In this document: positions 9,119 to 29,985 of the stretch, piece after piece
Position numbering within the stretch: position 1 is the stretch's first letter
Layout: the number at the start of each line of letters is the position of its first letter
NCBI GenBank assembly: GCA_037444445.1
Contig: JBBIMK010000009.1
Span: 32,438-64,437 of the forward strand
Direction of reading: 5' to 3'
Source of the DNA: a bacterium
GTDB taxonomy: Bacteria; UBP7; UBA6624; JBBIMK01
DNA length: 32,000 nt
The notes under the pieces: generated by a model
The model's input: the letters and a program-made list of their open reading frames with translations, nothing else
Databases searched by the model: none
Told to the model about the DNA's origin: nothing
Made by a program: the position numbers and the translations under genes

Positions 9119-9157
9119 ATTATACGGGCGCCCCACAGAATTGGAAATGAACTTTCT

Positions 9158-10252
9158 TTACTGTTCTACGGTGCCGCCGGTGGCTTGCTCGGTTCCAGCG
9201 GAGTAGTAAACCACGACGCCGTCATAACGACCATCCTGGTTGGGTGTGCTCACATCCGTGGCTCGGGCAACCCCTGGTGCAGGAACAAAGGCCACATTGG
9301 GTATCTCCGCCACGCCCAGGAGTGTGCCCTGAGAGCTCACTCCACCATAGCCCGGCTCATTTAACCAAATCGAGCCCGGGATAAAAGCGTTAGGATTCTG
9401 ACGGCATCCGAACCTGTCTACCACCGTGCCTGACAGGGTGCCAAACTCTGTGGGCAGACCGTTTAGTCCACCGTTTGGATTTCGTGTCCCCCAGCAGTGC
9501 AGGACATCCTTCCCCACAGTGCGGACCGAGCCATACCCAGCCAGCAGGAAGTGGTCAATAGAGAATGGCCTCATAATGCCTCCGGTGGTGCCTAACTGGC
9601 GGATAATCCCCGGCGTTACCCCGTAAGCCCGATAGGCGAACTCACCCGGAATCCAGTCCACCGTCTGGGTGTTATCATCCCCCATGAAGTAGTAAATTAC
9701 CTGCTGTTGACCAGTGGCTAAAGGGTTATCACTGGGTAACGGACTCAGGGTGCCGCACTGGGAAGTCTGGGTATTGCAGTTGTTGGTGTCTCGTCCGGGG
9801 TAATTCGGGTCCGATAGAATGTTACCCAGAAGATCGCCGCCTTGTGGCCGCGGGGGTAAGCCCGCTCTCCACCAGCAGCCGAAGCGCGGGTCCAGGTTGG
9901 TCCGAATGCAGAGAGAGCTTCCGTCCTTCATAAATGGATTCCGATGGTAAGAAGTTTGATACCCGTAGAAAATTAAGGGGTCCATGGGCTGTGCAGTAGC
10001 GAGAGCAGCCCACCCTTGCCCATTGGTCCAGGAAGCCACATCCCCACCGTAAATATAGTTCGGATATAGGCCATCCTGATCCGTGGCGTATCGCTCCAGG
10101 GATATCTGGATGGCGTGGACGGAGGACTTGGTTTGCACCTCCAGCGCCTTGTCCTTCGCCTTGATGAAGTTGGGAAGGGCAAGGGAAACCAGTATCCCGA
10201 TGATGGTGATGACCACCAATAACTCAATGAGGGTAAACCCTCTACGAATCAT
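9158..10252 (-). CDS. Large prepilin-type (GspG-like N-terminus) protein, paralog P1, 364 aa
   Basis: Class III signal MIRRG|FTLIELLVVITIIGILVSLALPNF with Glu at +5. GspG-like helix ending in ERYA. GGAGG lies 7 nt upstream of the ATG. Six Cys residues. Shares internal motifs with P2 and P3: GYxxxYxxNPF, PGxFxY, AGYG, and C-terminal DGxxDGVVV. Confidence 0.9.
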   Translation of the reverse strand: MIRRGFTLIELLVVITIIGILVSLALPNFIKAKDKALEVQTKSSVHAIQISLERYATDQDGLYPNYIYGGDVASWTNGQGWAALATAQPMDPLIFYGYQTSYHRNPFMKDGSSLCIRTNLDPRFGCWWRAGLPPRPQGGDLLGNILSDPNYPGRDTNNCNTQTSQCGTLSPLPSDNPLATGQQQVIYYFMGDDNTQTVDWIPGEFAYRAYGVTPGIIRQLGTTGGIMRPFSIDHFLLAGYGSVRTVGKDVLHCWGTRNPNGGLNGLPTEFGTLSGTVVDRFGCRQNPNAFIPGSIWLNEPGYGGVSSQGTLLGVAEIPNVAFVPAPGVARATDVSTPNQDGRYDGVVVYYSAGTEQATGGTVEQ

Positions 10253-10385
10253 AAAAACACCTCCTTTTTTCCGTCAGGGAGAAAAGGAAGCCCGCTTTTT
10301 CAGGGAGAACCCTGTGGGGCGCCCTTTCTTTTTTATCTCTCTTCAATGCAGGCTTCCCTTCCTCTCTGCACGGAATTTTTATTCC

Positions 10386-11555
10386 TTACTTCAGTTCCCG
10401 TTTGGGCTCCTTATCCAATCCACCGTAAACCAGGGTGATAATTTGGTCAGGCGTGCCATCAGGGCCACTTCCACTGGGTCCCACCTCATCTCCAGGCTTC
10501 AGGGGCGTAATGGTATAGGTGCACTGCCAGGTACTTGGCGGGACTTTGTAGAAGGGGACATTCATCGGGTCTGGCTCAAAGGAGAAATATCCCGTGAGAA
10601 ACCCGTGAGCACCGCCGAAGGAGGTCCAACACCAACCCCCCGCACCCGGTGGTTCACAGCAGGAGCGGTGCATATAATCGTAGCCCAGGGTTTTGATAGA
10701 GCCGAAGCCCACGAGAACATATCCGCAGACGGCGTGGGAAAGGATTCGGGCCGCCGGTAGGCTACCCGTGTTGTTCAAGGCTTCCAGATGGGCATCCACG
10801 GTCTCACCGTCGCAGAAAACCGGGTGATAAAAGAACTGACCCGGCACATCCATGCTCGGAGGACCATACTGCTGACGATAGCCGGACATGTCATTTGCCC
10901 ACAAATCCGTCCACACCGATTCGCCTTTCCCCCAGCCGAGGTCGAACATAAGGTTGCCATATCTGCCTCCCACGGCGTAACCAGGGCTGTAGAGTTGAAC
11001 ATAAGGGGACCCCGCAGCCCAGACGCTGTTGATGTTTGGCGGTATGAACGGATTCTTCGGATACTCGCTCAGATAGCCGAACATCAACAGCATGTCCATG
11101 CAGACTTCCTTGCTCGGGGAGTTGGGACCCCGATACTCCGGAACTCTCTGCTTCAGGGTTCCCAGTTCAGGCAGACAGTAAGGCCGGTTGGTGTTGCAAT
11201 CCACAAAGTCCGGCGGGTTTAGCCAACTGCCATCGTAATCCAGGAAGGCAGATTCACCGGCGTTCGTTCCCGGATTGCATCCGGAGGAACTAGCGTATGG
11301 TCCTCCGTCTGCACTGGCGATATTGAACTCCTGGTCACCTCCCGTGACTACCTGTGGATAGAGCCCCGCATTTTCCACAGCGTAGCGCTCCAGTGCCATC
11401 TGAATGATGTGGATGTTGGCTTTGATCTGCGTTTCCTTCGCCTTATCCCGCGCCCGTATATAGTTGGGTAAGGCGATAGAAACCAGAATTCCCAGAATCA
11501 CCATAACCACCAGTAACTCAATAAGCGTGAAACCTCGAATCATTCGGGATTTCAC
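10386..11555 (-). CDS. Large prepilin-type (GspG-like N-terminus) protein, paralog P2, 389 aa
   Basis: MKSRMIRG|FTLIELLVVMVILGILVSIALPNY. GTG start with GGAGG 9 nt upstream; an alternative ATG lies 12 nt downstream. Ten Cys residues. C-terminal GPDGTPDQIITLV resembles a GspG C-terminus. Confidence 0.9.
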   Translation of the reverse strand: MKSRMIRGFTLIELLVVMVILGILVSIALPNYIRARDKAKETQIKANIHIIQMALERYAVENAGLYPQVVTGGDQEFNIASADGGPYASSSGCNPGTNAGESAFLDYDGSWLNPPDFVDCNTNRPYCLPELGTLKQRVPEYRGPNSPSKEVCMDMLLMFGYLSEYPKNPFIPPNINSVWAAGSPYVQLYSPGYAVGGRYGNLMFDLGWGKGESVWTDLWANDMSGYRQQYGPPSMDVPGQFFYHPVFCDGETVDAHLEALNNTGSLPAARILSHAVCGYVLVGFGSIKTLGYDYMHRSCCEPPGAGGWCWTSFGGAHGFLTGYFSFEPDPMNVPFYKVPPSTWQCTYTITPLKPGDEVGPSGSGPDGTPDQIITLVYGGLDKEPKRELK

Positions 11556-11596
11556 CGCGTATCACCTCCTTTCAGATTCTTGTTGTTCTCTTTCAT
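11552..11596 (-). other. Candidate upstream ORF (14 codons, MKENNKNLKGGDTR) overlapping the P2 start as GTGA
   Basis: ATG at 11596 with GAAGGA 9 nt upstream. The TGA stop (11554..11552) overlaps the P2 GTG start (11555..11553). The P2 Shine-Dalgarno site lies inside the uORF. A homologous arrangement precedes P3. Confidence 0.3.
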
Positions 11597-11649
11597 TTTT
11601 TGGGTTCCTTCGTTTTACCGCCTTTCATCCTCGGATAACGAAGTAGCCT

Positions 11650-12789
11650 TTACGGCGGTGGCCCCTGACCTGAGGCTTCGCATCCGGGCTTCCGGGTGTC
11701 CATGAGCACCTTCACATCCACGCCGGAGGAGAGAACGGTGATGACACCGTCTGGCAACCCGTCAGGACCGTTATACACGCAGTAAGCATCGCGTGCGGAG
11801 GCATAGTTCAAGTCCCCCGGTTCCAGTTTGCAATCCCCCTCCGCATCATCACAGGCGAGAGTGCTCTCTGCGTAATCGCCCAGGACATCATAGACATCGT
11901 GCCCGCGATTCCAGCTAGCACCATAGCCTGCCAGATGATAGCCCACCACCTTTGCCTGCATAAAGAACCCTGTCCAGACATAATTCGAGTCTGGCTGTAT
12001 GGGGTAGTAGTAGAAGTTGCCCGGTAGGTAATTGTGGAGGATTTTGTTGGAGGTTTGAGCCTGGGCGGGGTCGCAGCCGGGGCTCCCTAACTTGCATCGG
12101 ATGGAATAGGGTGGGTGCCCTGCCCAGCCTCGGGCGGTAACGGTAAGCCCTGATACAGTATTATTCAATTGCCCCCCGCGCTGGCAAGCGCCTTTGCCTA
12201 ACCCATAAGCCCCGGAAGGACCGCAGATGGCTCCGTAAACCCCCTCGCTGACATCCCACATAAAGGAGTTGGTAGGTCCGCCCACATGTCGACAAGAGGC
12301 GTCGTCGGCTGATTGACACCGATTGTTGGGGAAAACCGTGCTGTAGTTGCAGAACACATCGGCGTTGCCCCCCATGTTATTTGGCCAGCGCGGGTGTGGA
12401 CACTCCCGCACCTGAAACTGGATTCCGGTGCCCGCCGCTGACATAAAGGGATTGTTAGGGTACCGATTGAGGTAGCCGTATTCCATGAGTGGGTCCCCAT
12501 CCCCGCAGGGCTGGCTGATCCTCGGGCAGTATATCGGGGCAAAGGGGGAAGCATTCCAGTCGTCGTAATTCCCCCCCAACAGCCACTTGGGAAAGGCCCC
12601 GTCATTATCCGAAGCATACCGTTCCAGCGCAGTGCGGATAATGTGCAGGTTCGCCTCCACCTGCTTCTCTCGCGCTTTGTCCCGCACCCTCGTGTAGTTG
12701 GGCAACGCAATGGCCACCAGTATCCCGATGATGACCATGACCACCAGTAACTCAATCAGTGTGAATCCACGAATCATTCGGGATTTCAC
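11650..12789 (-). CDS. Large prepilin-type (GspG-like N-terminus) protein, paralog P3, 379 aa, very Cys-rich
   Basis: MKSRMIRG|FTLIELLVVMVIIGILVAIALPNY. GTG start with GGAGG 9 nt upstream. Fourteen Cys residues. C-terminal GPDGLPDGVITVL. Confidence 0.9.
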   Translation of the reverse strand: MKSRMIRGFTLIELLVVMVIIGILVAIALPNYTRVRDKAREKQVEANLHIIRTALERYASDNDGAFPKWLLGGNYDDWNASPFAPIYCPRISQPCGDGDPLMEYGYLNRYPNNPFMSAAGTGIQFQVRECPHPRWPNNMGGNADVFCNYSTVFPNNRCQSADDASCRHVGGPTNSFMWDVSEGVYGAICGPSGAYGLGKGACQRGGQLNNTVSGLTVTARGWAGHPPYSIRCKLGSPGCDPAQAQTSNKILHNYLPGNFYYYPIQPDSNYVWTGFFMQAKVVGYHLAGYGASWNRGHDVYDVLGDYAESTLACDDAEGDCKLEPGDLNYASARDAYCVYNGPDGLPDGVITVLSSGVDVKVLMDTRKPGCEASGQGPPP

Positions 12790-14099: not shown

Positions 14100-14128
14100 A
14101 TATTACCACAGGCAAAAAAACTTGTCAA
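14100..14128 (-). promoter_or_regulatory. Sigma70-type promoter upstream of pilC and the pilin genes
   Basis: The minus strand reads TTGACA (14128..14123), a 17-nt spacer, then TAATAT (14105..14100) preceded by TGg, an extended -10 element. It lies in the 95-nt gap between pilT and pilC. Confidence 0.65.
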
Positions 14129-17172: not shown

Positions 17173-19377
17173 TCATCGTTTTTCCCGTCTCATTTTCATT
17201 GTAGCATCTTTTTTATTTCTGTCAACTCTTACATCCAGGTGCCTTATACCAGCCTGCAGTGCCACCAGGGATTCGGGGGATGGAGGCTCTCCCCCATAAA
17301 AATACTTCTCCACACAGGTTAACAGCCCGTGAATTTCCCGCTCCGACGATGGTGAAACCCGGAGGACAGAAACCAGATACTCCCGATAGGTTGCCGAAGG
17401 CGAGCGCGGGAACCCGGCTTTCTTTTCCACCCTCCCCACCAGCGATAACAGCCTCTCCCGGAAAGAGGGCGAACGCGGAAAACGCCCACCCATAGATAAA
17501 ATGACAGAATGGATATGGTGATAAGCATAAGGGAAAAAAAGAGGCAGCAGGAACGCAAGGATTAGAGGAACTTTTACCCGGTTGAACCAATTCCCAATAG
17601 GCCTCGCAAGCGTAGATACATAATACGACAGCGTGGCGGCGAGGAAAGCCAGACGGTCCTGAAAATAATTTCCCGGGCTGAGAGGGTTCACATCCCGGCT
17701 GAGACCCCCCACACCACCCGGGTTTGTCACGGAAACATTCTGCAAAACCTCAGGCGTGGGGTCCATCGTTATCCAGGCATAATTTGGGATATACGCTTCC
17801 ACCCACGCATGGGCATCCTTATCCTTCAGCGTAAAACTCCCCTGCAAGAAATCATACTCCCCGCCCATATACCCACCCACCACTCGCGCAGGGATTCCCA
17901 CCGCTCTTAACAGCACAGCCATCGCACTCGCATAAAACTCACAGTACCCACTCCGCCCCTCAAACAAGAAATAATCCACCGCATCCCGGTCCCTCGGAAT
18001 CCTCCCCAATTCCAGCTTGTACTGGTAACGCGGCGAATTCAGGAATCTCCGTATCGCCTCCATCTTCTCATAAGCGGAAGCAAAGCCGTCCGTAATCTCG
18101 TGCGCCAGCGCATAAACCCGCTCAGGAACCTCAGGCAATTCCAGATACCGCCTCAGGACCATGGCCTCCCTGGAGGGTAGTGAATCCACCCGATAAATTT
18201 TCAGGGTCGTCTCATCCGTCTTCACCACATACGACTCTACGGAGTAAGAATACCCCGGGTTTAACACAAAAGAGGTTCGCAACGACCCCTCCCGGTCCGA
18301 CGACACGAAACTACCCTCCTGGCGGTGAAATGAAAACGGTAACCTCACCGAAACGGGCTCCCACAGGGCAAACAGCACATTCGGGTGAGGTTTCAACACC
18401 CGAAAAGTAGTTCTCACCCTTTCATATTCGTAATCCCGCTCCTCATCAGGCTCTATCAGAGGAATATACCCCTTTTCCGAGTCAACCGAATGAGGTGTCA
18501 GGGGCGAATGCGAGGGGATTTCCCATCCCCTGCCCGTATAAGTCGTGAACACCAGCCCGCGGAAATACCCCGCAAAAGGAGCAGAAACCTCCATCGCAGG
18601 CTCCTCCGACAGGTGGATACTTTCCCCCGATGCCAGTTGCAAGTAAGGCGAGAAGCCCGAATACCGCACATAAGCGGGAGGCAGGTCATCCGAAAAATTT
18701 AACGGCACAAGACTTCCAATGGTTCCGCCGGCAGAGGTGGGTCCAGCCAGCAACACCAGAGACTCACCCCGGGGAATCTTCGCTACCATCAAGAACACAA
18801 TAGATGAAAGCAGAAAAGCCCATAGAAAAATGTTCAACCCCAGGCGGAAGAAGACGGGCACAGTCCATTTCTCTCGCTTCTCCAGATTTTTCTGAAAACC
18901 TCCCCGTTGGATAAACATAGTGGATTCCCCAAAGATGACCAGTAGCAGGCTTGCCAGCCCCAGAATCGCAAAAAGTATCCCCGTAAAATTATAAAGGGAT
19001 AGACCCCCGGTGAACAGCGACACCGCTACAGGAAACGACAGGAAAAATAGCACATCCTGAAGGGTAAATAACCGGAGGAGAAAAACTATCAACAGCCAGG
19101 GAACCAGCCGGCCGATATAGAGATAAAAGTTACCAAAATCCTTCACCCCCTGATAAGTATAGTAAGTGAACAAAAGGAAGGAACAAATTTCTCCCAGTAT
19201 CCGAACCCACTTGTGCAGTGAGCGAGGAATGAACAGGCTGAGAAAAAAACTGCCGTTCATCAGGGCATAGAGAAGGATTGCCTCATAGGGCTTGTAGGAA
19301 AGCGCCAGAAACACCAGCGCAAAACACAAAGAGGAAATCACCCATACCAGCACATACTGGAGGGTGGAAATGGGCAT
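17173..19377 (-). CDS. TgpA-like membrane protein with transglutaminase-like core domain
   Basis: Multi-TM N-terminal half. Transglutaminase core GRSGYCEFYASAMAVLLRAVGIPARVVGGY...DAHAWVEAYIP...WITMDPTP (Cys-His-Asp). The start is uncertain. ATG 19377 has AAGGG 9 nt upstream. ATG 19425 has GGAGG directly abutting it. The ORF-track start at 19596 overlaps the DUF58 gene by 194 nt and is unlikely. Confidence 0.85.
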   Translation of the reverse strand: MPISTLQYVLVWVISSLCFALVFLALSYKPYEAILLYALMNGSFFLSLFIPRSLHKWVRILGEICSFLLFTYYTYQGVKDFGNFYLYIGRLVPWLLIVFLLRLFTLQDVLFFLSFPVAVSLFTGGLSLYNFTGILFAILGLASLLLVIFGESTMFIQRGGFQKNLEKREKWTVPVFFRLGLNIFLWAFLLSSIVFLMVAKIPRGESLVLLAGPTSAGGTIGSLVPLNFSDDLPPAYVRYSGFSPYLQLASGESIHLSEEPAMEVSAPFAGYFRGLVFTTYTGRGWEIPSHSPLTPHSVDSEKGYIPLIEPDEERDYEYERVRTTFRVLKPHPNVLFALWEPVSVRLPFSFHRQEGSFVSSDREGSLRTSFVLNPGYSYSVESYVVKTDETTLKIYRVDSLPSREAMVLRRYLELPEVPERVYALAHEITDGFASAYEKMEAIRRFLNSPRYQYKLELGRIPRDRDAVDYFLFEGRSGYCEFYASAMAVLLRAVGIPARVVGGYMGGEYDFLQGSFTLKDKDAHAWVEAYIPNYAWITMDPTPEVLQNVSVTNPGGVGGLSRDVNPLSPGNYFQDRLAFLAATLSYYVSTLARPIGNWFNRVKVPLILAFLLPLFFPYAYHHIHSVILSMGGRFPRSPSFRERLLSLVGRVEKKAGFPRSPSATYREYLVSVLRVSPSSEREIHGLLTCVEKYFYGGEPPSPESLVALQAGIRHLDVRVDRNKKDATMKMRREKR

Positions 19378-19402
19378 CTGCCACAGCCCTTTCCCCCTTT
19401 GT

Positions 19403-20671
19403 TTATCCAGAATAGAGTAAGTCATCCTCCTGTGATAAAGTATACACCCTGGCTCCCCCGGATGCAACCTGCTGGAGAAACTTCTGCACAGGGTCCCGAG
19501 GGAGAGAGAGAGGAGAAATCTTGCCTGAATCCGCCCCCCCACCGGAACGAAAAGCCTCGGGATTGATGTAAAAAAAGGATACAGAAGCCACAACACAACT
19601 GAGGTGATGGAGAATCGGAATCATTTCCTCCCTGATGCTGGAGGTGAATAAAAGGAGATGAAGGTTGGGAGAACGAAGATGAGACAGGAGGCGGAGAAGC
19701 ACGGTAGAGAAGGGGTTAGAGCCTTTTCCCTGAATGCAGGCTAATTTTTGGAAGGCCACAAGAAGGGAGGCAGGTCCCGAAGCAAGGGTGAAATCCATTC
19801 CATCCGGCTCATCAAAATAAACACTCCCCAGTGCACCCGTAGAGAAATAGTAATGCGCCACGGAAGCGGCAGAGCGAATAGCCACCTCCAGGGTATTCCG
19901 GGGACCATCCCCCAGAATTTGATGGGGGTCCACATCCACCACGATTAAGAAATTCCCCCCCATTTCCCTGAGGAACTGTTTCAGGACCGGGAAACCCAAT
20001 CGGGCGGAGGTGAGCCAGTGAATATTCTTAAATGGGTCCCCCGGGACATACGGACGCAGTCCGATGAATTCATCCCCCGCTCCTTCCAGGGATACGCTGG
20101 GTCGCAGAGGAAGCGGTGAGCCCCCGCCCGCTTCCAGGGGAAAAGAGGTGAGAATGAGAAACCGAGGATACACGGTGAATGCCCGTTCTATCCGGAATAT
20201 CTCCTGCACCTGATATAACTTCATCGGGTCCTGCGATTCCAGAACTATAGTGGAAAACGGATAGATTCCCCGACGCACACTCCGAAGGCTGAAAGGATAA
20301 CGCACCTCCTCCCCTTTCTGAATCCGGGCAAGATGAATTTCCAGCGGCGACTCTATATAGGGCGCCTGAAAACTCACTTTTAACAGAATCTTCTGAAGTG
20401 GCGTGTGATTCCGCACCACCACTTCACCCTGAAAACTATGCCCCTCTACATTCCCCTCCGGAACCCGCAGGTCCACACTCACTCCCCGGAGACTCCGAGT
20501 CACCCAGATGAAGGCGATGATGTGTAAAGCCACGAAGAAAGATAGCACCGCATCCAGCGTTTCCACAGCAGCACTCGTAACAGACAGCACAAAGATAAAA
20601 AGGGCAATGAGCAAAAGAGAAATCCCCCGGGGTGCTATGAAATACCGGGTCCTATGCGATGGGAACTTCAT
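19403..20671 (-). CDS. DUF58 family protein (vWA-like, MoxR-associated)
   Basis: ORF of 422 aa. Two N-terminal TM helices. DUF58 signature GDEFIGLRPYVPGDPFKNIHWLTSARLGFPVLKQF. The ATG overlaps the end of the MoxR gene by 20 nt. Confidence 0.8.
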   Translation of the reverse strand: MKFPSHRTRYFIAPRGISLLLIALFIFVLSVTSAAVETLDAVLSFFVALHIIAFIWVTRSLRGVSVDLRVPEGNVEGHSFQGEVVVRNHTPLQKILLKVSFQAPYIESPLEIHLARIQKGEEVRYPFSLRSVRRGIYPFSTIVLESQDPMKLYQVQEIFRIERAFTVYPRFLILTSFPLEAGGGSPLPLRPSVSLEGAGDEFIGLRPYVPGDPFKNIHWLTSARLGFPVLKQFLREMGGNFLIVVDVDPHQILGDGPRNTLEVAIRSAASVAHYYFSTGALGSVYFDEPDGMDFTLASGPASLLVAFQKLACIQGKGSNPFSTVLLRLLSHLRSPNLHLLLFTSSIREEMIPILHHLSCVVASVSFFYINPEAFRSGGGADSGKISPLSLPRDPVQKFLQQVASGGARVYTLSQEDDLLYSG

Positions 20672-21590
20672 GAAGAAGAGCCGTGAGAACCTCTTTCTCC
20701 GTAAGACCGGAGACCTTCAGATGAGGCTTCAGATACACCCTGTGGGAGAGCAGTGGGACAAAAAGTTCTTTCACATCGTCCGGAATCACATACTCCCTGC
20801 CCCGAAGAAAAGCCAGAGCCTGAGAAGTGCGTAATAGCCCCAGGGCACCCCGAGGACTGGCCCCCAGCAGAAAATCCCCGTGCCTGCGAGTGGCATCCCC
20901 TAACGCCACGATGTATTCCAGAATGGAACCCGACACCTTAATATGCCGTATCGCCCTCTGTAGTTCCAGAATCTCTTCCTTCCCTACCACTGGAGTTATC
21001 GTGGTGATAGGGTGCTGAAGCATCTGGTCTAACAACATTTGCACCTCTTTCTCCGGGGGGAGATAGCCCAGGGAAATCCGCATCATAAACCGGTCCAGTT
21101 GTGCCTCCGGTAGCTTATACACCCCTTGATATTCCACCGGGTTCTGCGTGGCAACAACGAAAAAGGGGTCATCCAGAGGTGTGGTAATTCCCTCCACCGT
21201 CACTTGATGTTCTTCCATCGCTTCCAGGAGAGAGGATTGAGTCCGAGGCGTTGCCCGATTGATTTCATCCGCCAGGAGAATATGAGTGAAGATAGGCCCC
21301 TTTTTGAAGTCAAAATCACTGGTTTTCTGATTATAAATGTAAGCGCCCGTGATGTCCGAAGGCAAGAGGTCTGGCGTCAATTGAATCCGCCGAAAGGTGA
21401 GTTGGGTGGAAAGGGCAAGGGCTTTGGCCAGTGTGGTTTTCCCGGTCCCGGGCACATCTTCAATCAGAAGATGTCCACCCGCAAGGAAGCAAACGAGGCA
21501 CTGCTCCACGACAGAGTCTTTCCCGATAATCACCCGCTGAACAGAATTTTTCAGCTGGGAAGCGAGAGCGAATCCCTGGTCCCAGTTCAA
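20652..21590 (-). CDS. MoxR-family AAA+ ATPase
   Basis: ORF of 312 aa. Walker A GHLLIEDVPGTGKTTLAKALA, Walker B ILLADEINRATPRTQSSLLEAMEEHQVT. TTG start with GGAGG 7 nt upstream. Confidence 0.9.
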   Translation of the reverse strand: MNWDQGFALASQLKNSVQRVIIGKDSVVEQCLVCFLAGGHLLIEDVPGTGKTTLAKALALSTQLTFRRIQLTPDLLPSDITGAYIYNQKTSDFDFKKGPIFTHILLADEINRATPRTQSSLLEAMEEHQVTVEGITTPLDDPFFVVATQNPVEYQGVYKLPEAQLDRFMMRISLGYLPPEKEVQMLLDQMLQHPITTITPVVGKEEILELQRAIRHIKVSGSILEYIVALGDATRRHGDFLLGASPRGALGLLRTSQALAFLRGREYVIPDDVKELFVPLLSHRVYLKPHLKVSGLTEKEVLTALLHEVPIA

Positions 21591-22961: not shown

Positions 22962-24036
22962 GAGCGGATAGAAAACTGAAGAACCTTTCCCGAAAGACCT
23001 GCGGAGAAAACCTTCGCGCATAGTTCTGTAGCACCTCCCGGGAGTAGGAGGAGGAGGAGAAGGAGCGAACCGCAGACTCCAGAGATTGGGGAGTGGGGGC
23101 CGGGAACAGAACGCCCGTTTGACCGGGAATTACCGTTTCCACCGCCGCACCATCGGATAAAGCAATGACTGGTGTCCCCGCGGCCATGGCTTCCACAGCA
23201 CACAGCCCGAAATCCTCTACTCCGGGAAAAATCAGGGCTTGCGCCCGGGCGTATAAGCCACGCAGAACATCTCGCTCCACCCAGCCCAGAAATTCTATAT
23301 TCTTTCCCGCCTTCTGACGAAGAGTTGAACCCAGGGGGCCCTGCCCTACAATCTTCAAGGGCAATCCCAGAGAATGGAAGGCTTCTATTGCCATTTCTAC
23401 CCCTTTATACGGGACGAGTCGGGAGACCAGCAGAAAGTATTCCTCACGAGGCAAACAGCCCGCACTGGCAAAAAACTCTACATCCACAGGAGGGTAAATC
23501 ACCTCAGCAGGGCGGCGGTAGTACCGCTCAATCCGCTTCGCCACGAATTGCGAAATCGCCACAAACTCATCCACCCGATGGGAGGCCACCACATCCCACT
23601 GCCGTAGCGATGGGAAAAAAGAGGCAGCCAGCGGCCGCTTCCACACGGAGAGTGACGAAAGATACACATCCCGCTGGTCCCAGATATACCGCATGGGCGT
23701 GTAGCAGTAGCAGACATGAAACGACCGGGCAGGGGGAAGAACGCCCTTCGCCACACAGTGATTCCCGGTAATGACCAGGTCCACATCTTCTATCCGCAAA
23801 CTCTCCACCGCCAGGGGGAATAGAGGAAGAAGATTCCGGTAATACCGATGGATGCCAGGGAAATTCTGTAAAAATGAGGGGTGAACCCGATGAACCCCCA
23901 GGAATCGTTTCCATCGCCGGGGATGATAAAACAACACATACACCGATGCATTCGGGAAAAAAGTGAGAAAGTGTGACAGAACTTCTTCCGCACCACCGGG
24001 CTCCTCCAACCACTCATGAACCAGCGCGACCTTCAC
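22945..24036 (-). CDS. Glycosyltransferase, GT4 family (GT-B fold)
   Basis: ORF of 363 aa. N-terminus MKVALVHEWL. C-terminal motif FPGVEDFGLCAVEAMAAGTPVIA. GTG start with AGGGAG 8 nt upstream. Confidence 0.85.
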   Translation of the reverse strand: MKVALVHEWLEEPGGAEEVLSHFLTFFPNASVYVLFYHPRRWKRFLGVHRVHPSFLQNFPGIHRYYRNLLPLFPLAVESLRIEDVDLVITGNHCVAKGVLPPARSFHVCYCYTPMRYIWDQRDVYLSSLSVWKRPLAASFFPSLRQWDVVASHRVDEFVAISQFVAKRIERYYRRPAEVIYPPVDVEFFASAGCLPREEYFLLVSRLVPYKGVEMAIEAFHSLGLPLKIVGQGPLGSTLRQKAGKNIEFLGWVERDVLRGLYARAQALIFPGVEDFGLCAVEAMAAGTPVIALSDGAAVETVIPGQTGVLFPAPTPQSLESAVRSFSSSSYSREVLQNYARRFSPQVFRERFFSFLSAHGNPV

Positions 24037-25387
24037 CCGTTGAACTCCCTGACGGTGTCGGCAAGGGGGAAATCCGAATGACCTCCGGCGGAGGCTGGGG
24101 AGACATTTCCGGAAATAGATTCACCAAATCCTGTGATTTCATCATTAATATCAGCGGATACGAACGAGGTGGAAGATTCTGGATATACCACCCTTCCGCT
24201 GTCTTCTGCAGGGTAAACTGCACATCAGAGGCGAGAGCAGGATCCACGAGGGCCACAGGCACGAACCCCGGCGCCCTCGCCACAAGAATCCCTGTATCCT
24301 TTGCACCCGTACTCCAGAACACAATCGCTCCCACTCCCCCATTCAGGAAAAAGTAACTCCCGCTCCCTTCCATCGCCATCCCGGGATAAAGGATTTGATA
24401 TGAAAACGGCGGATACACAGGCTTCATCCCGGCGAGGAAAGAGTTCATTGAAAGAAACATCACATACACAGGCCGCGGTAACCCCTCCGGAGGTAACAAC
24501 CCATCCATAGAGTTCTCATCCCTGTTATGCAGCGGGTCAACGAACCACCTATCCACTCCCATTGCCGTCAAAGATACAGCAAGTCTTGCCATAGCGCTCG
24601 CTCGTTCCTCCCCGCTTCTCATATAACCCACAACCCCCAGACGCCCCACCACCACATCCTTCTTACTCCCCACCAGCCGGCGGATATAATCCACCACCCT
24701 ATAAGTGCGCAAGTATGTAGAGTAATCCCAATAAGTAGAGGAAGAGAAAGGAATCACCAAAGAAATCCCGTCGGCGAAAGACAAAACCCCTCTCGCTTGA
24801 AGAGTCTCCAGGAACACCTCATCCTCACCAGATACCCCTCCCACATACACCTTCGCCAGAGGGTCAAAGGCGCGGATGGCTTGATATGCCAGCAAAAATG
24901 TCCTCCCATAAGACACAGCCAGAGGTTGAGAAAACGAAATCCCACCGATGGGACCCCCTCCCTCATCCACATTCTCAAACACCTCATACCCATAAATCAG
25001 CCACCGATACCGCTCCGCCACTCTCCCGGCAAACCGTGCGAACGCTTCCGCCCTCTCATCCCCTCCATATAGCAGGTTAGAGCCCGTTAACAGAGCCAGC
25101 ACATCCAGCCCCAGGCTCCGTGCATGCTGAACCACAGGGTCATAAACTGAGAAGTCATACTTCCCCTTTATCCTTTCAATCTCATTCCACAGGATGCTCA
25201 ACCGGATGGCAGAAAAGTTCCCCCTCCGTATCTCTGCCACATCCTTCTGCCAGTCTGCATCCACCGTCACATTTACCCCGGCAGGTTCATACACCTCACC
25301 CCTCACTTCCTTCCCCTGCACCAGAAAAACCACCGCAGGGGCAATCCACTTTGCTAGATACAAAAAGGCACTTTCCTTATACTTCAT
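24014..25387 (-). CDS. Secreted TIM-barrel glycoside-hydrolase-like protein (clan GH-A-like); function uncertain
   Basis: Signal or anchor LAKWIAPAVVFLV. The segment IRLSILWNEIERIKGKYDFSVYDPVVQHARSLGLDVLALL resembles the N-terminal strands of GH5/GH39/GH42-type enzymes. Where the clan's NE(P) motif is expected, the sequence reads YEVFENVD. ATG at 25387; an alternative GTG at 25396 overlaps the alaS stop. Confidence 0.4.
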   Translation of the reverse strand: MKYKESAFLYLAKWIAPAVVFLVQGKEVRGEVYEPAGVNVTVDADWQKDVAEIRRGNFSAIRLSILWNEIERIKGKYDFSVYDPVVQHARSLGLDVLALLTGSNLLYGGDERAEAFARFAGRVAERYRWLIYGYEVFENVDEGGGPIGGISFSQPLAVSYGRTFLLAYQAIRAFDPLAKVYVGGVSGEDEVFLETLQARGVLSFADGISLVIPFSSSTYWDYSTYLRTYRVVDYIRRLVGSKKDVVVGRLGVVGYMRSGEERASAMARLAVSLTAMGVDRWFVDPLHNRDENSMDGLLPPEGLPRPVYVMFLSMNSFLAGMKPVYPPFSYQILYPGMAMEGSGSYFFLNGGVGAIVFWSTGAKDTGILVARAPGFVPVALVDPALASDVQFTLQKTAEGWYIQNLPPRSYPLILMMKSQDLVNLFPEMSPQPPPEVIRISPLPTPSGSSTGEGRAGS

Positions 25388-25392
25388 ACCAA

Positions 25393-28044
25393 TCACCTTC
25401 CTCCGTAAGGCGAGGGTCCCAATAGTTGAAGGAACAGAGAGTCAGCAGCGTTCTGGATGGCCAACGAGAGAGAATCCACCTTCTTCCCCCCCGCCTGTGC
25501 AAAGTGGTCCTGACCTCCTCCCTCTCCCTGAATGATATCCCGAACCTCATGGATAATCGTGCGAGCCGACACCCCTTCCTTCATCAGATTCGGTCCTATG
25601 GCCACCACCACATACGCTTTCTTCTCGTGGACACACCCCAGTACCACCGCCTTATCCGGGTTTCTCCGGATGAACAGCCCGGCCACATCTGCCAGTTCCT
25701 TAGGGGTCACATCCTCTAATTCTTTATACCCGACAGCATTCCCAATTTTTTCCAGGTGGTCCAGAGATTCCACCAGCGTGCGGGCTTTCCATCTCTGTAC
25801 CTGTTTCCGCAGCCCTTCCAGCAGGCGTTGATGTTCCAGGAATTTCTTTTCCAACGATATGATGGGGGTAGAAAGGTGGCGGGAAAGGGCTCGGAGAATG
25901 CGGTCGGAGTGCTGAACCCACCGGAGAGCCTCCAGCCCGGTGACAGCCTCCAGACGCCGGAGCCCGGCCCCCACTCCTTCCTCGCCGGTAATCTTAAAAA
26001 ATCCCACTTCATGCGTCCTGTCTAAATGGGTTCCTCCGCATAACTCCCGGGAAATTCCTTCTACTTCCACCACACGAACCGTGCTACCATACTTCTCCCC
26101 GAACAGAGCCACCGCTCCAGAAGCCATTGCTTCTTCATACGATTTCTCCTCGGCTTTCACCGGATGATTCTGGAAAATCCACTCGTTCACCTTTTGCTCC
26201 AGTTCCTCCAGTTGCTCCTGGGATATAGGGTGCAAAGCATGAACATCAAACCGGAGAAGGTCAGGTCCAACGAGGGAGCCAGCCTGGGTGGCGCCCTCTC
26301 CCAGCAGGTTCCGCAAGGCGGAGTGGAGAAGATGAGTGGCCGTATGAGCACGACGAATGGCCGCCCGCCGTTGCCCGTCCACTTTTGCTTCCACCTCTTC
26401 GCCTACCCTCACATCCCCGTTCAGAATTCTACCATAGTGCAGGATGGTTCCCATCTCGTGTCGGGTGTCCAGAACCTCAATCCGGGCATCCGTGAGGAGG
26501 CTTTTAATCTCGCCGGTGTCGCCCATTTGCCCCCCCGCTTCCGCATAAAAGGGCGTTACATCTAAAGCCACAATAATTTCGTCATTTTTCCGACGGATAT
26601 ATTGAATGTGCGCCGGGCTCTCCAGACGCTGGTAACCCACAAATTGGGACGCCCGGGGTTCCCCCGCTGCCGCCCACTCCTCAGAAGCCACCCGGTGAGC
26701 CCGGCGCCCCCTTTCCCTCTGCCGTTCCATCTCCCGCTGATACCCCTCTTCATCCACCTTCAGCCCTTGCTCTCTCGCCATCTCTATGGTCAACTCCAGC
26801 GGGAATCCGTAGGTATCGTAGAGAGCGAATGCCACCTCACCGGGAAGGGTGTCCTCCCTCAGCCCCGAAATTTTTTCCTCAAAATATCTCGTGCCTACTT
26901 CCAGCGTCCGGAAGAATGCCGTTTCTTCCGCTTCAATGGCTTTCCAGATGAGATAACTTCTCTCCCGAAAGTTCGGCAAATAAGTCATATCCATGTCAGT
27001 GGATTTCCCCACCAGGGTATTGACCCCGGTGTGGAAAAAGGGGCGGGACATTCCCATCTTCACGCCGTAGCGGACAGCCCGTCGGATGAGCCGCCGAACC
27101 ACATATCCGTGTTTCACATTGCTGGGACGGATATTCTCTGCCATGGTGAAACACACCGCCCGTAGATGGTCGGCACAAATCTGCGCCACTTTCACTCTTT
27201 CCTTCGGGTCCTTTTTCTCAAACAGGTTCAAATAATGTTGAACAAGAGGGGCCAGAAGATGGGTCTCAAATACCGAAGTATAGCCATTGACGACGGCACA
27301 AAGACGCTCCAGCCCCATGCCCGTGTCCACGCCCCGCTCCGGTAAACGCTCCAGCTTCCCCTCTCCCCGACGGTTGTATTCCATAAACACCAGGTTCCAG
27401 ATTTCCAGGCTCTTCTCCTCATCTCCCGGTAGTGCCTTCTCCGTCAGGCGGTAGTATATCTCTGTGCACGGGCCACAGGGTCCGGTCTCCCCCATCTTCC
27501 AGAAATTATCCTCTTTGCCCCGAGCCAGAATCCGGTCCGCGGGAATCCCCGCTTCACGCCAGAAATCCCGACTCTCTTCATCCGCTGGAACCTCCTCATC
27601 TCCCTGAAATACGGTCACCCACAGTCGGTTCGGGTCCATCTTCAGAAATTCCGTTAGAAACTCCAGTGCCATAAATATGGCTTGAGCCTTAAAATAACTT
27701 TTGGAGCCGAAGGAAAAATTGCCCAGCATCTCAAAAAAAGTCAGGTGCCGTGGGGTGGTGCCCACCTTCTCCACATCCGTGGTCCGTAAGCAGGGCTGGC
27801 AGGTAACGAGGCGTGGAAAAGGTGGCGCTTTTACCCCCAGATAGTATGGCTTGTATTGCGCCATACCTGCATTGGTGAACAACAGAGAAGGGTCATCCCT
27901 GAGCACCAGTGGAGCCGGCATCTCCTCCCTGTGGTCCAGATTTTTATAGACAGGGCGGGTGCGAAAATAAACCAGAAACTCCCTCCGCAGGGTTGAAGCA
28001 TCCGCCACGCTTTCTTTCGATTCAAACCGTCCTCTCTTCATCAT
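25393..28044 (-). CDS. alaS: Alanine--tRNA ligase
   Basis: ORF of 883 aa. Motifs: DPSLLFTNAGMAQYK, RHLTFFEMLGNFSFG, editing-domain HTATHLLH and CGGTH, C-terminal GGGQDHFAQAGG. Confidence 0.97.
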   Translation of the reverse strand: MMKRGRFESKESVADASTLRREFLVYFRTRPVYKNLDHREEMPAPLVLRDDPSLLFTNAGMAQYKPYYLGVKAPPFPRLVTCQPCLRTTDVEKVGTTPRHLTFFEMLGNFSFGSKSYFKAQAIFMALEFLTEFLKMDPNRLWVTVFQGDEEVPADEESRDFWREAGIPADRILARGKEDNFWKMGETGPCGPCTEIYYRLTEKALPGDEEKSLEIWNLVFMEYNRRGEGKLERLPERGVDTGMGLERLCAVVNGYTSVFETHLLAPLVQHYLNLFEKKDPKERVKVAQICADHLRAVCFTMAENIRPSNVKHGYVVRRLIRRAVRYGVKMGMSRPFFHTGVNTLVGKSTDMDMTYLPNFRERSYLIWKAIEAEETAFFRTLEVGTRYFEEKISGLREDTLPGEVAFALYDTYGFPLELTIEMAREQGLKVDEEGYQREMERQRERGRRAHRVASEEWAAAGEPRASQFVGYQRLESPAHIQYIRRKNDEIIVALDVTPFYAEAGGQMGDTGEIKSLLTDARIEVLDTRHEMGTILHYGRILNGDVRVGEEVEAKVDGQRRAAIRRAHTATHLLHSALRNLLGEGATQAGSLVGPDLLRFDVHALHPISQEQLEELEQKVNEWIFQNHPVKAEEKSYEEAMASGAVALFGEKYGSTVRVVEVEGISRELCGGTHLDRTHEVGFFKITGEEGVGAGLRRLEAVTGLEALRWVQHSDRILRALSRHLSTPIISLEKKFLEHQRLLEGLRKQVQRWKARTLVESLDHLEKIGNAVGYKELEDVTPKELADVAGLFIRRNPDKAVVLGCVHEKKAYVVVAIGPNLMKEGVSARTIIHEVRDIIQGEGGGQDHFAQAGGKKVDSLSLAIQNAADSLFLQLLGPSPYGGR

Positions 28045-28075: not shown

Positions 28076-29194
28076 TCACAGGCGAACGAGGTATGGATTT
28101 TCCCATCGGAGCGAGAGAAGAAGCGTCACCACCAGGAGAATTCCATTGGGAAGCCAGGCGGCAATCACAGGAGACAGGGCTCCCCCCTGCCCTACCCGGA
28201 TGGTTACCGTTACCAGGATGTAGTAAATGAGAGCAATCACGGCGGAGACCCCCAGTCCTATTCCAGACCCGGAACGCTCCCGGGTTACCCCCAGCGGCAC
28301 CCCCAGCAAAGCAAAAACAAAACTGGCAAAAGGAATAGCCACTTTCAGGTGCAGTTGAGTTTCCCATTTTTTTACCACTTCCGGCTCTATCCCGGCGAGC
28401 TTCAGGTGTTGAATGTACCGTCGGAGTTCCCGATGAGTCATCTGCTCTGGTGCCAGGGTTTCTTTCATAGCCTCCTCCAGGGTCCTGGAGAAATCTACAT
28501 TCAGGCGAGAGAAGTCCGTGTTTAGTGAGCGTCCGTCAGGGAAGAATTGAGTTAACCTTCCGTTAAAGAGTTCCCATTTTCCAGGCGAAGAGGGTTGAGC
28601 CCTTTCCGCTGTAGCCAGTTGTCCGGGTTTTCCCTGCTTATCAAATTCTATCCAGGTGATGGCGTAGAGCACGCCGCCCTGCAATTTCGTGGCGTAAATC
28701 ACTCTCTGAACCACATTCCCCACCTTCTCCGGGAGAATGATATTTTCTGCTTCTACGGCTGGCTTTCGGAGGGCATCTGCTTTCACGCGTTCAAATTCCA
28801 CCGCCGCCCACGGCACCAGGGTCTCGTTCAACACCAGCCCCGCCAGGCTCACGAATACACCGAAAAAGGCAAATGAACTCAGAATTTGAAAAAATCCTAA
28901 CCCCGTAGCCAGTAAGGCGGTAAACTCCCCTCGGGAGGAAAGCCGATTGGCTGTTAAAAGAGCCGCCAGCAATAACCCCATGGGCAGAGAATAGGTGATT
29001 GCCTGCGGGACGCCTAACAGAAAAAGCACACCCACATAGGATATATGAACCTTATGCTCCACCAGAAGAGAAAGTAAAGGGCGCAGCAAAAGGATGGAAA
29101 TCATCAGGGTGGAAAAAGCCAATACACCAAAAATGAACAGGGGAAATAATTCTGTCAGGATGATTTTATTTTTCAGGCTGAAGTGGAATAACAT
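28076..29194 (-). CDS. LPS export ABC permease, LptF/LptG (YjgP/YjgQ) family
   Basis: ORF of 372 aa. Three N-terminal TM segments, a central soluble (periplasmic) domain, then three C-terminal TM segments. The ATG overlaps the lptB stop by 1 nt (TAATG). Confidence 0.8.
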   Translation of the reverse strand: MLFHFSLKNKIILTELFPLFIFGVLAFSTLMISILLLRPLLSLLVEHKVHISYVGVLFLLGVPQAITYSLPMGLLLAALLTANRLSSRGEFTALLATGLGFFQILSSFAFFGVFVSLAGLVLNETLVPWAAVEFERVKADALRKPAVEAENIILPEKVGNVVQRVIYATKLQGGVLYAITWIEFDKQGKPGQLATAERAQPSSPGKWELFNGRLTQFFPDGRSLNTDFSRLNVDFSRTLEEAMKETLAPEQMTHRELRRYIQHLKLAGIEPEVVKKWETQLHLKVAIPFASFVFALLGVPLGVTRERSGSGIGLGVSAVIALIYYILVTVTIRVGQGGALSPVIAAWLPNGILLVVTLLLSLRWENPYLVRL

Positions 29195-29985
29195 TAGCCA
29201 GTGGGGGCGGAAGGAGAGGGTGGCAGAGATTCCTTCGGCGCTTCCTGAAGTTCTTCCGGCACCCGAAAATGCCGACCCAGGTAGTATTCCTTGGCCACCG
29301 GGTCCTCCGCCACCTGCCGGGATGTGCCCGACAGGAGGATGCGTCCCTGGTGCATGATATACACTCGGTCGCAGATGGCAAGAGTCTCACGAACATTGTG
29401 GTCGGTCACCAGAAGGCCCACACCCCGGCTCTCTCTCAGCCGGCGGATGATTTGCTGGAGGTCCTGGATCGCGATGGGGTCCACGCCGGTAAAGGGTTCA
29501 TCCAGCAGGAGGAAGGAAGGACTGGTGGCCAGGGCCCTGGCAATTTCCACCCTCCGCCTCTCCCCGCCGGACAAGGCATATCCTTTCTGCTGTTTCAGTT
29601 CCGTAAGCCCCATTTCACTCAAAATCTGCTGAGCAGTTTCCTGTCGTTCCTTCTTCTTTTTCCCCAGTACTTCCAGCACGAGGAGGACATTCTCTTCCAC
29701 AGTGAGTTTGCGAAAGACGGAAGGCTCCTGGGCAAGGTAGCCGATGCCCATTCGGGCTCTGCGATGCACCGGCACCCTCGTAATGTCCTTCCCGTCCATA
29801 AACACCCGCCCCCGACTGGGGGGGATTAACCCCGTGAGCATATAAAAGGTGGTGGTCTTCCCGGCCCCGTTGGGTCCTAAAAGCCCCACGATTTCACCCT
29901 GGTTCACCTCTATCTGAACGGAATCTACTACCCTCTTCCGCCCATAGCGCTTCACCAGGTCTCGCCCTTCCAGTTTCTGGTTCAT
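29194..29985 (-). CDS. lptB: LPS export ABC transporter ATP-binding protein LptB
   Basis: ORF of 263 aa. Walker A GPNGAGKTTTFYM, signature LSGGERRRVEIARALA, Walker B FLLLDEPF, H-loop TDHN. It carries a Pro/Ser-rich C-terminal extension of about 20 aa. Confidence 0.88.
   Translation of the reverse strand: MNQKLEGRDLVKRYGRKRVVDSVQIEVNQGEIVGLLGPNGAGKTTTFYMLTGLIPPSRGRVFMDGKDITRVPVHRRARMGIGYLAQEPSVFRKLTVEENVLLVLEVLGKKKKERQETAQQILSEMGLTELKQQKGYALSGGERRRVEIARALATSPSFLLLDEPFTGVDPIAIQDLQQIIRRLRESRGVGLLVTDHNVRETLAICDRVYIMHQGRILLSGTSRQVAEDPVAKEYYLGRHFRVPEELQEAPKESLPPSPSAPTG

Follow-up and report, generated by a model that had tools for sequence, protein, structure and literature searches.

Three tandem genes for unusually large, cysteine-rich type IV prepilins in a type IVa pilus gene cluster of a UBP7 bacterium

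The large prepilin genes and their cluster

We analysed a 32,000-nucleotide stretch of a UBP7 bacterial genome (assembly GCA_037444445.1, contig JBBIMK010000009.1, positions 32,438 to 64,437; hereafter the window), in which three tandem genes, named P3, P2 and P1 in gene order, encode unusually large prepilins. A preliminary description, made from the sequence alone, had listed these genes, and their coordinates and lengths agreed exactly with our open reading frame (ORF) listing (Table 1). It had also assigned them to a dedicated pilC-pilin operon. The results showed instead that they lie inside a type IVa (T4a) pilus cluster, with all genes on one strand in the order pilB-pilT-pilC-P3-P2-P1-pilT2. 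Since two PilT/PilU ATPases scored above the TIGR01420 cut-off, the cluster points to a retractile pilus rather than to a GspG-type secretion pseudopilus. No other prepilin motif was found elsewhere in the window. LptF/G and an LptB-like ABC ATPase are encoded at 28076-29985, indicating an outer membrane that contains lipopolysaccharide (LPS).

The earlier reading of a textbook class III signal in all three ORFs was borne out. In each protein, a short basic leader with Gly as its last residue precedes FTLIELLVV, which has Glu at +5; with a slash at the predicted cleavage site, P1 starts MIRRG/FTLIE, and P2 and P3 start, after a GTG codon, KSRMIRG/FTLIE. The curated cut-offs of PF07963 (30.3-32.9 bits against 21.2) and TIGR02532 (33-35 bits against 16.3) were passed by all three. 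In the mature proteins, Gly14 and Pro22 agree with T4a major pilins and GspG, and Phe1 and Glu5 are also present. The leader and the first 11 mature residues are identical between P2 and P3 (19 of the first 20 residues), a pattern that, by analogy, is typically seen in co-assembling or alternative major pilins. The mature proteins would have 359 (P1), 381 (P2) and 371 (P3) aa, and the threshold for large T4a pilins is at least 166 aa. P1, P2 and P3 are type IV prepilins.

Table 1. Features of the pilus cluster in the window. L081 ('bacterium JZ-2024 1'), L086 (JGI 3300010938) and L088 are related genomes; AF2, AlphaFold2; pLDDT, predicted local distance difference test; pTM, predicted template modelling score; RBS, ribosome-binding site.
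Feature	Position	Strand	Evidence
pilB, extension ATPase, 600 aa	15334-17136	minus	T2SSE 3e-128 and MshEN; best NCBIfam match type IV-A PilB TIGR02538, 585 bits
pilT copy 1, retraction ATPase, 380 aa	14173-15315	minus	TIGR01420 (PilT/PilU), 438 bits against cut-off 319
Sigma-70-like promoter site, pilT-pilC gap	14100-14128	minus	TTGACA-17-TAATAT with upstream TG, 10/12 matches
pilC, platform protein, 407 aa	12854-14077	minus	T2SSF 2.6e-65; best NCBIfam match Thermus-type PilC NF052607
P3, large prepilin, 379 aa, 14 Cys	11650-12789	minus	PF07963 32.9 bits; strong RBS; 1:1 orthologs in L081 and L086; AF2 pLDDT 74
P2, large prepilin, 389 aa, 10 Cys	10386-11555	minus	PF07963 32.9 bits; AF2 pLDDT 82, pTM 0.85; Foldseek, no PDB match
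Long RNA hairpin, P2-P1 spacer, just upstream of the P1 RBS	10269-10375	minus	-52.7 kcal/mol, z=-4.67, 0/200 shuffles as stable
P1, large prepilin, 364 aa, 6 Cys	9158-10252	minus	PF07963 30.3 bits; strong RBS; orthologs in L081 and L086
Intrinsic terminator 3' of P1	9087-9119	minus	14-bp stem with 9 G-C pairs, then ATTTTTAT (U-run)
pilT2, second PilT/PilU-family ATPase, 373 aa	7907-9028	minus	TIGR01420 431 bits against cut-off 319; position kept in L081, L086 and L088

The globular domain

We searched the roughly 300 C-terminal residues of the pilins against family and structure collections. Pfam and NCBIfam matches were confined to the N-terminus, both in P1-P3 and in the family members scanned singly (23 + 50), and none fell in the C-terminal part. 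In PDB sequence searches, both P2 by itself and a profile of 58 sequences found matches in the N-terminal helix alone (geopilins, PilA, GspG), and these reached no further than residue 75. P2 and P3 were modelled with AF2 from a 58-sequence alignment. Both models showed a helix at residues 11-61 with pLDDT above 90, and in P2 this was followed by about 180 mostly irregular residues and by strands at 241-247, 276-284, 335-345 and 372-378. The P3 model (pTM 0.81) had the same general layout, and the 3-5 strands of the models all lay in the C-terminal half. Foldseek found nothing significant in the PDB for P2 (best E=1.3) or for P3, whose best matches were the T4b pilin CofA (E=0.14) and Thermus PilA5 (E=2.3); as far as the model goes, these non-significant matches are compatible with a pilin. 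The initial judgement that the region is no named domain thus held in the Pfam, NCBIfam, PDB sequence and Foldseek searches. Since it lacks both a Pfam or NCBIfam model and a structural neighbour, the globular domain is a candidate for a new family definition. A literature search found no paper describing this pilin family.

The preliminary description had called the proteins GspG-like. This holds for the first ~75 residues and not beyond them: TIGR01710 scored 46-54 bits against a cut-off of 88.85 and covered positions 1-61 of 134, and PF08334 (GspG) matched neither P1-P3 nor the scanned family members. When the pilin profile was aligned by hhalign with six genuine GspG sequences, the N-terminal part gave 99.5% probability over 71 columns. 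In the globular part, the proposed GspG landmarks (the DPWG region and the C-terminus) gave E=0.37 over 8 columns, and the global alignment was unsupportive past about residue 75. GYL..YP.NPF and GYL..LP.DPWG are alike by eye, and the blocks are collinear; because neither local nor global profile-profile alignment gave support, we do not claim this reading. The conserved blocks themselves, ALPN[FY], ERYA, PG-x-F-x-Y, [AV]G[YF]G and DG-x2-D-x-[VI][VI], were all found in P1, P2 and P3, and the NPF block was present with a spacing other than that first given, the pattern being [FY]GY-x3-Y-x2-NPF and not Y-x-NPF.

Membership in DUF1559, which the earlier reading had already discounted, was excluded as well. 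PF07596 gave no match, the expression H.{9}DG found no H-x9-DG motif in P1-P3, and hhalign against 17 DUF1559 proteins gave E=0.18 for the globular part, with 99.7% probability over the 71 N-terminal columns. The suggestion of a pilin-anchored display module is unlikely, as conserved blocks run over the entire length and no known domain can be separated. On sequence grounds, P1-P3 are type IV pilins and fall outside the GspG, DUF1559 and modular-pilin families.

Distribution of the family and orthology of the three pilins

To describe the family, we used a word-index search with P2 and an HMMER search with a profile of the globular domain. The word-index search recovered about 90 full-length homologs of 340-460 aa, all from metagenomes or metagenome-assembled genomes (MAGs). 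Of 1.84 billion representatives, 268 matched the profile at E<=1e-3, of which 162 reached E<=1e-10 and 42 reached E<=1e-30, and nearly all of the matches listed had 250-450 aa, the exceptions being a few short fragments and a 1,582-aa Rib-repeat protein. The globular domain defines a rare but coherent unannotated family. One relative came from an anammox reactor (PMC9202391).

Two groups of matches stand apart. Some proteins, P0048, P0053, P0058 and P0139 (the last in L087, 8001-9221), carry the same globular domain without a class III signal. N_methyl does not match them, and their N-terminus is of another kind or a plain hydrophobic anchor; the domain may occur outside pilins, or the starts may be mis-called. 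The Rib-repeat protein, P0229, is a Gram-positive LPXTG protein with 16 Rib domains, whose ten matches to the family profile fall on the C-terminal block. Kinship with the Rib domain was rejected: the match is a sum of ten weak matches on the short PDGxxDxxIxV block, and Rib models miss the pilins. The likeness between the last pilin strand and the Rib domain appears to be one of motif.

By best BLAST hit, 221 family proteins fell into three subfamilies, P2-type (95), P3-type (55) and P1-type (71). The cluster TgpA-pilB-pilT-pilC-three pilins-pilT was common to three independent relatives, L081, L086 and L088. BLAST bit scores showed that P3, P2 and P1 each have a 1:1 ortholog in L081 and L086, where the order P3-P2-P1 is kept. 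In the more distant L082, L084, L085 and L089, tandem pilin pairs lie away from machinery genes, and the pairs of L082, L084 and L085 each consist of one P2-like and one P3-like gene. The globular domains of P1, P2 and P3 are only ~22% identical to one another. This low identity, together with the same-order orthologs, indicates that the paralogs are old and individually retained, which argues for distinct roles (co-assembly or alternative filaments) and against a variable cassette array.

Sequence divergence, cysteine content and habitat

We compared the proteins of the window with those of L086. The machinery was nearly identical (PilB 96%, PilT 96%, PilC 95%, PilT2 97%; GroEL 95%), and the pilins had diverged much further (P3 69%, P2 67%, P1 80%). 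Such a selective acceleration of the pilins would be expected for surface-exposed filament subunits.

The cysteine counts given earlier proved correct, and all cysteines follow residue 87, in the globular part. They make up 1.6-3.7% of the pilins, compared with 0.5% of the other window proteins. The even counts had been read as a sign of disulfides, and the results are consistent with this: all nine orthologs from the window, L081 and L086 have even counts, and among the nearest P2-type homologs cysteine columns appear and vanish in pairs. For P2, this co-occurrence suggests the putative disulfides C127-C152, C248-C277 and C93-C120/121. As a trait of the whole family, cysteine-richness was not upheld, being limited to the nearest relatives (6-14 Cys); distant homologs have 0-2.

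The IVYWREL fraction of the window proteins was 0.442, which by the Zeldovich relation corresponds to a rough optimal growth temperature of ~79 °C. GroEL was 77-99% identical within its own clade and 68% identical to MAGs of Armatimonadota, Chthonomonadetes and Bacillota, a result that places the lineage only loosely. The clade of the window's near relatives is probably thermophilic, and the sampled habitat was probably a hot spring. From composition and cysteine pattern, we infer that disulfides stabilise an extracellular domain in what would be a thermophilic branch of a deep lineage.

Expression signals and RNA elements

Each pilin gene has a AAGGAGGTG ribosome-binding site 5-8 nt ahead of its start codon, which is ATG in P1 and GTG in P2 and P3. 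The promoter-like site ahead of pilC and the strong terminator past P1, both reported earlier, were found, and both are kept in the close relative L086. In the distant relative L081, TTGACA-17-TATAAA occupies the same pilT-pilC gap. As a class, promoter-like sites were not clearly enriched in the region (12 against 7.1 ± 2.5 expected).

Another promoter-like sequence, TTTCCA-17-TATAAT (9119-9147, minus strand, 10/12 matches), abuts the 5' end of the P1 terminator. Because it lies upstream of pilT2, it suggests that pilT2 is transcribed separately. Within the window, the P2-P1 spacer is the only place where the hairpin occurs, and L081 lacks it. In L086, the spacer folds equally well (z=-5.35) with a different stem sequence, so that the structure is conserved. 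An Rfam search of the locus, spacer hairpin included, matched no family. The hairpin may serve in intercistronic processing or stability and thereby set the stoichiometry of the pilins.

Comparison with known pilins and pseudopilins

Like P1-P3, Myxococcus xanthus PilA and other large T4a pilins have a class III signal, an alpha-1 helix, genes linked to PilB, PilT and PilC, and an enlarged globular domain, and PDB 8tj2_C matched residues 9-51 of the pilin profile (E=5e-13). In a survey of 1,955 T4a major pilins, the mature protein ranged from 42 to 297 aa, with a mean of 141 ± 25. M. xanthus PilA (PDB 8TJ2), with 208 aa in its mature form, is the largest with a solved structure; its large domain leads to tight packing and rigidity, and about 9% of large T4a pilins have at least 6 Cys (PMC11046646). 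Several disulfides, which in P1-P3 are predicted, are also a feature of a subset of the large pilins. In contrast, mature P1-P3 (359-381 aa) exceed both the survey maximum and the largest solved structure, being ~2.5 times the usual size of a pilus subunit, and their globular domain has no sequence or Foldseek similarity to that of M. xanthus PilA, which is one pilin as opposed to three conserved paralog types.

GspG/PulG (TIGR01710, PF08334; PDB 5WDA) resembles P1-P3 over the first ~75 residues, where a ...YP... turn follows alpha-1, and, by eye, in a DG-rich C-terminal block. P1-P3 are ~2.6 times longer, have a globular part that is unrelated by profile, and stand in a T4a context with two PilT genes and not in a type II secretion system (T2SS). 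The C-terminal DG region of GspG binds calcium. The DUF1559/HX9DG proteins (PF07596, TIGR04294) of Planctomycetota and Verrucomicrobiota likewise combine a prepilin helix with a 250-350-aa domain of unknown function, and they too occur in uncultured or little-studied diderm lineages. DUF1559 genes number dozens per genome in bacteria of the Planctomycetota-Verrucomicrobiota-Chlamydiota group, whereas the P1-P3 family has 2-3 tandem copies per locus examined.

PilE1 and PilE2 of Streptococcus sanguinis and PilA4 and PilA5 of Thermus have 111-150 aa, and the two S. sanguinis proteins are close paralogs. PilE1/PilE2 (PMC10628169) and Thermus PilA4/PilA5 (PDB 6XXD, 6XXE) resemble P1-P3 in being multiple pilin paralogs with a near-identical alpha-1N; PilE1 and PilE2 co-assemble (PMC10628169), and PilA4 and PilA5 of Thermus thermophilus form alternative filaments. 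The globular domains of P1-P3 differ from these in their ~22% mutual identity and in being roughly three times larger. The modular pilins PilB and PilC of S. sanguinis, also far above the usual size, carry an additional recognisable domain (vWA, lectin) behind a complete pilin module (PMC8179133); unlike them, P1-P3 have no separable known domain, and their conserved blocks span the whole globular region.

Role of the three pilins

On balance, and with a slight lean only, we take P3, P2 and P1 to be co-expressed, filament-forming structural subunits of a retractile T4a pilus. In the proposed mechanism, a prepilin peptidase encoded elsewhere would cut off the 5-8-residue leader, the adjacent PilB and PilC would assemble a filament of P1-P3, and the two PilT paralogs would retract it. 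The conserved 51-residue N-terminal helix (Phe1, Glu5, Gly14, Pro22) would pack into the filament core. The ~300-residue globular domain, with a family-specific fold of loops, Gly/Pro and aromatics, would form the outer surface, making the filament thicker and more tightly packed than usual, and 3 to 7 disulfides would cross-link it in this probably thermophilic clade. The three pilin types would co-polymerise or make alternative filaments; as they are kept in the same order in related genomes, they appear non-redundant. Because the globular domain has no known family or structure match, the pili may be unusually thick or of mixed subunits, and a thick filament or a set of alternative major subunits are our best hypotheses on function.

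Several observations weigh against this assignment. Neither the window nor the flanks examined contain a prepilin peptidase gene, and no PilMNO, secretin or minor pilin genes were found in the window. Foldseek recognised no pilin fold in the globular part of P2 or P3, and some family members lack the class III signal. The mature proteins are larger than every major pilin surveyed (1,955, maximum 297 aa; PMC11046646), so that a major-subunit role would be unprecedented. P1-P3 are known here as genes, from which we infer expression, processing and assembly. Finally, three distinct conserved pilins in a fixed order could be a minor-pilin or tip set.

This last point is the core of an alternative that we regard as unlikely, though far from negligible: P1-P3 would be minor pilins, forming a priming or tip complex in the style of GspH-I-J-K or PilV-W-X, or a tip adhesin, and a small major pilin would be encoded elsewhere in the genome. 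The fixed order across genomes recalls minor-pilin sets, a 302-aa pilin-like gene adjoins the pair in L082, and GspK (~330 aa) is an example of a large pilin that acts as a minor subunit. Our reading covers the window, and a major pilin could sit in the remaining genome. However, Glu5, Gly14 and Pro22 are kept in all three proteins, whose alpha-1N is near-identical, and P1-P3 share homology with each other, which is not typical of minor-pilin sets. Each gene has a strong ribosome-binding site within a unit with its own promoter-like site and terminator, and the pairs in distant lineages are separate transcription units, as is often the case for major pilin genes.

We also weighed a pseudopilin-like role in the manner of DUF1559 or GspG proteins, in which P1-P3 would form a short periplasmic pseudopilus or stay anchored in the membrane for secretion or substrate capture. 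Public annotations of homologs as 'type II secretion system protein' or 'PulG' would fit this, as would a best NCBIfam match to GspG (N-terminus only), the size and architecture shared with DUF1559 proteins (a helix and a ~300-aa domain) and the homologs without a prepilin signal. We consider it quite improbable: the GspG match is under its cut-off and ends at position 61, the globular part is not aligned with either family (E=0.37 for GspG, E=0.18 for DUF1559), the H-x9-DG motif is absent, and the quick sequence divergence fits external exposure. In addition, the genes are flanked by two PilT-family retraction ATPases, which, to our knowledge, T2SS clusters do not contain. It is less probable still, and in our view very unlikely, that P1, P2 and P3 serve as interchangeable variants (antigenic or phase) of one major pilin, used one at a time to evade phage or predators. 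Their faster evolution than the machinery and their tandem arrangement with the same leader would agree with such a role, but the globular domains are too dissimilar (~22% mutual identity), each type has same-order orthologs in L081 and L086 and a subfamily of its own, and all three genes have a full ribosome-binding site and signal peptide, with no silent or truncated copies seen.

The assignment of P1-P3 to filament subunits also has a bolder form, which probably does not hold in full: a T4a shaft built of three different ~40-kDa subunits with an unseen fold, the largest filament-forming pilins, thick and disulfide-braced, in a thermophilic diderm and perhaps too wide for a canonical secretin. 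If true, a fibre too wide for the canonical secretin channel would imply an unusual route through the outer membrane. The mechanics, diameter and outer-membrane passage of type IV pili are understood from subunits of 110-210 residues, and a filament of 360-380-residue subunits, if true, would extend this range almost twofold. Such a filament would test the idea, derived from M. xanthus, that a large globular domain gives rigidity, and would raise the question of how the fibre leaves an LPS-bearing diderm cell. The conserved triplet is a natural system for heteropolymeric or alternative pili, and a thermostable, disulfide-rich pilin, as predicted here, may interest protein-nanofibre engineering. 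Homologs now carry the label 'type II secretion system protein', which is a mis-annotation.

Neighbouring genes

In the region 17173-21590 of the window, a TgpA (transglutaminase-like) gene lies directly upstream of pilB, as it does in L081, L086 and L088. Genes for a MoxR AAA+ ATPase and a DUF58 protein precede it in the window, and in L081 and L086 too. We know of no functional connection between TgpA, MoxR or DUF58 and the pilus. Further away, a 460-aa ORF (24014-25396, minus strand) has a GT4 glycosyltransferase gene on one side and alaS on the other; it matched no Pfam family and had a weak, partial NCBIfam match (GH35-like, E=1e-4).

On the other side of the cluster, the segment 6276-7869 (minus strand) holds two membrane-protein ORFs of 217 and 283 aa with weak matches to PMT_2/GT-C and arabinofuranosyltransferase-like models, and its local GC content falls to 0.41-0.46. 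L086 lacks this segment, and pilT2 is there followed directly by groES-groEL. The segment resembles an insertion specific to the strain and may be a split GT-C glycosyltransferase, and its position adjoining the pilus genes suggests a putative role of the two ORFs in pilin glycosylation.

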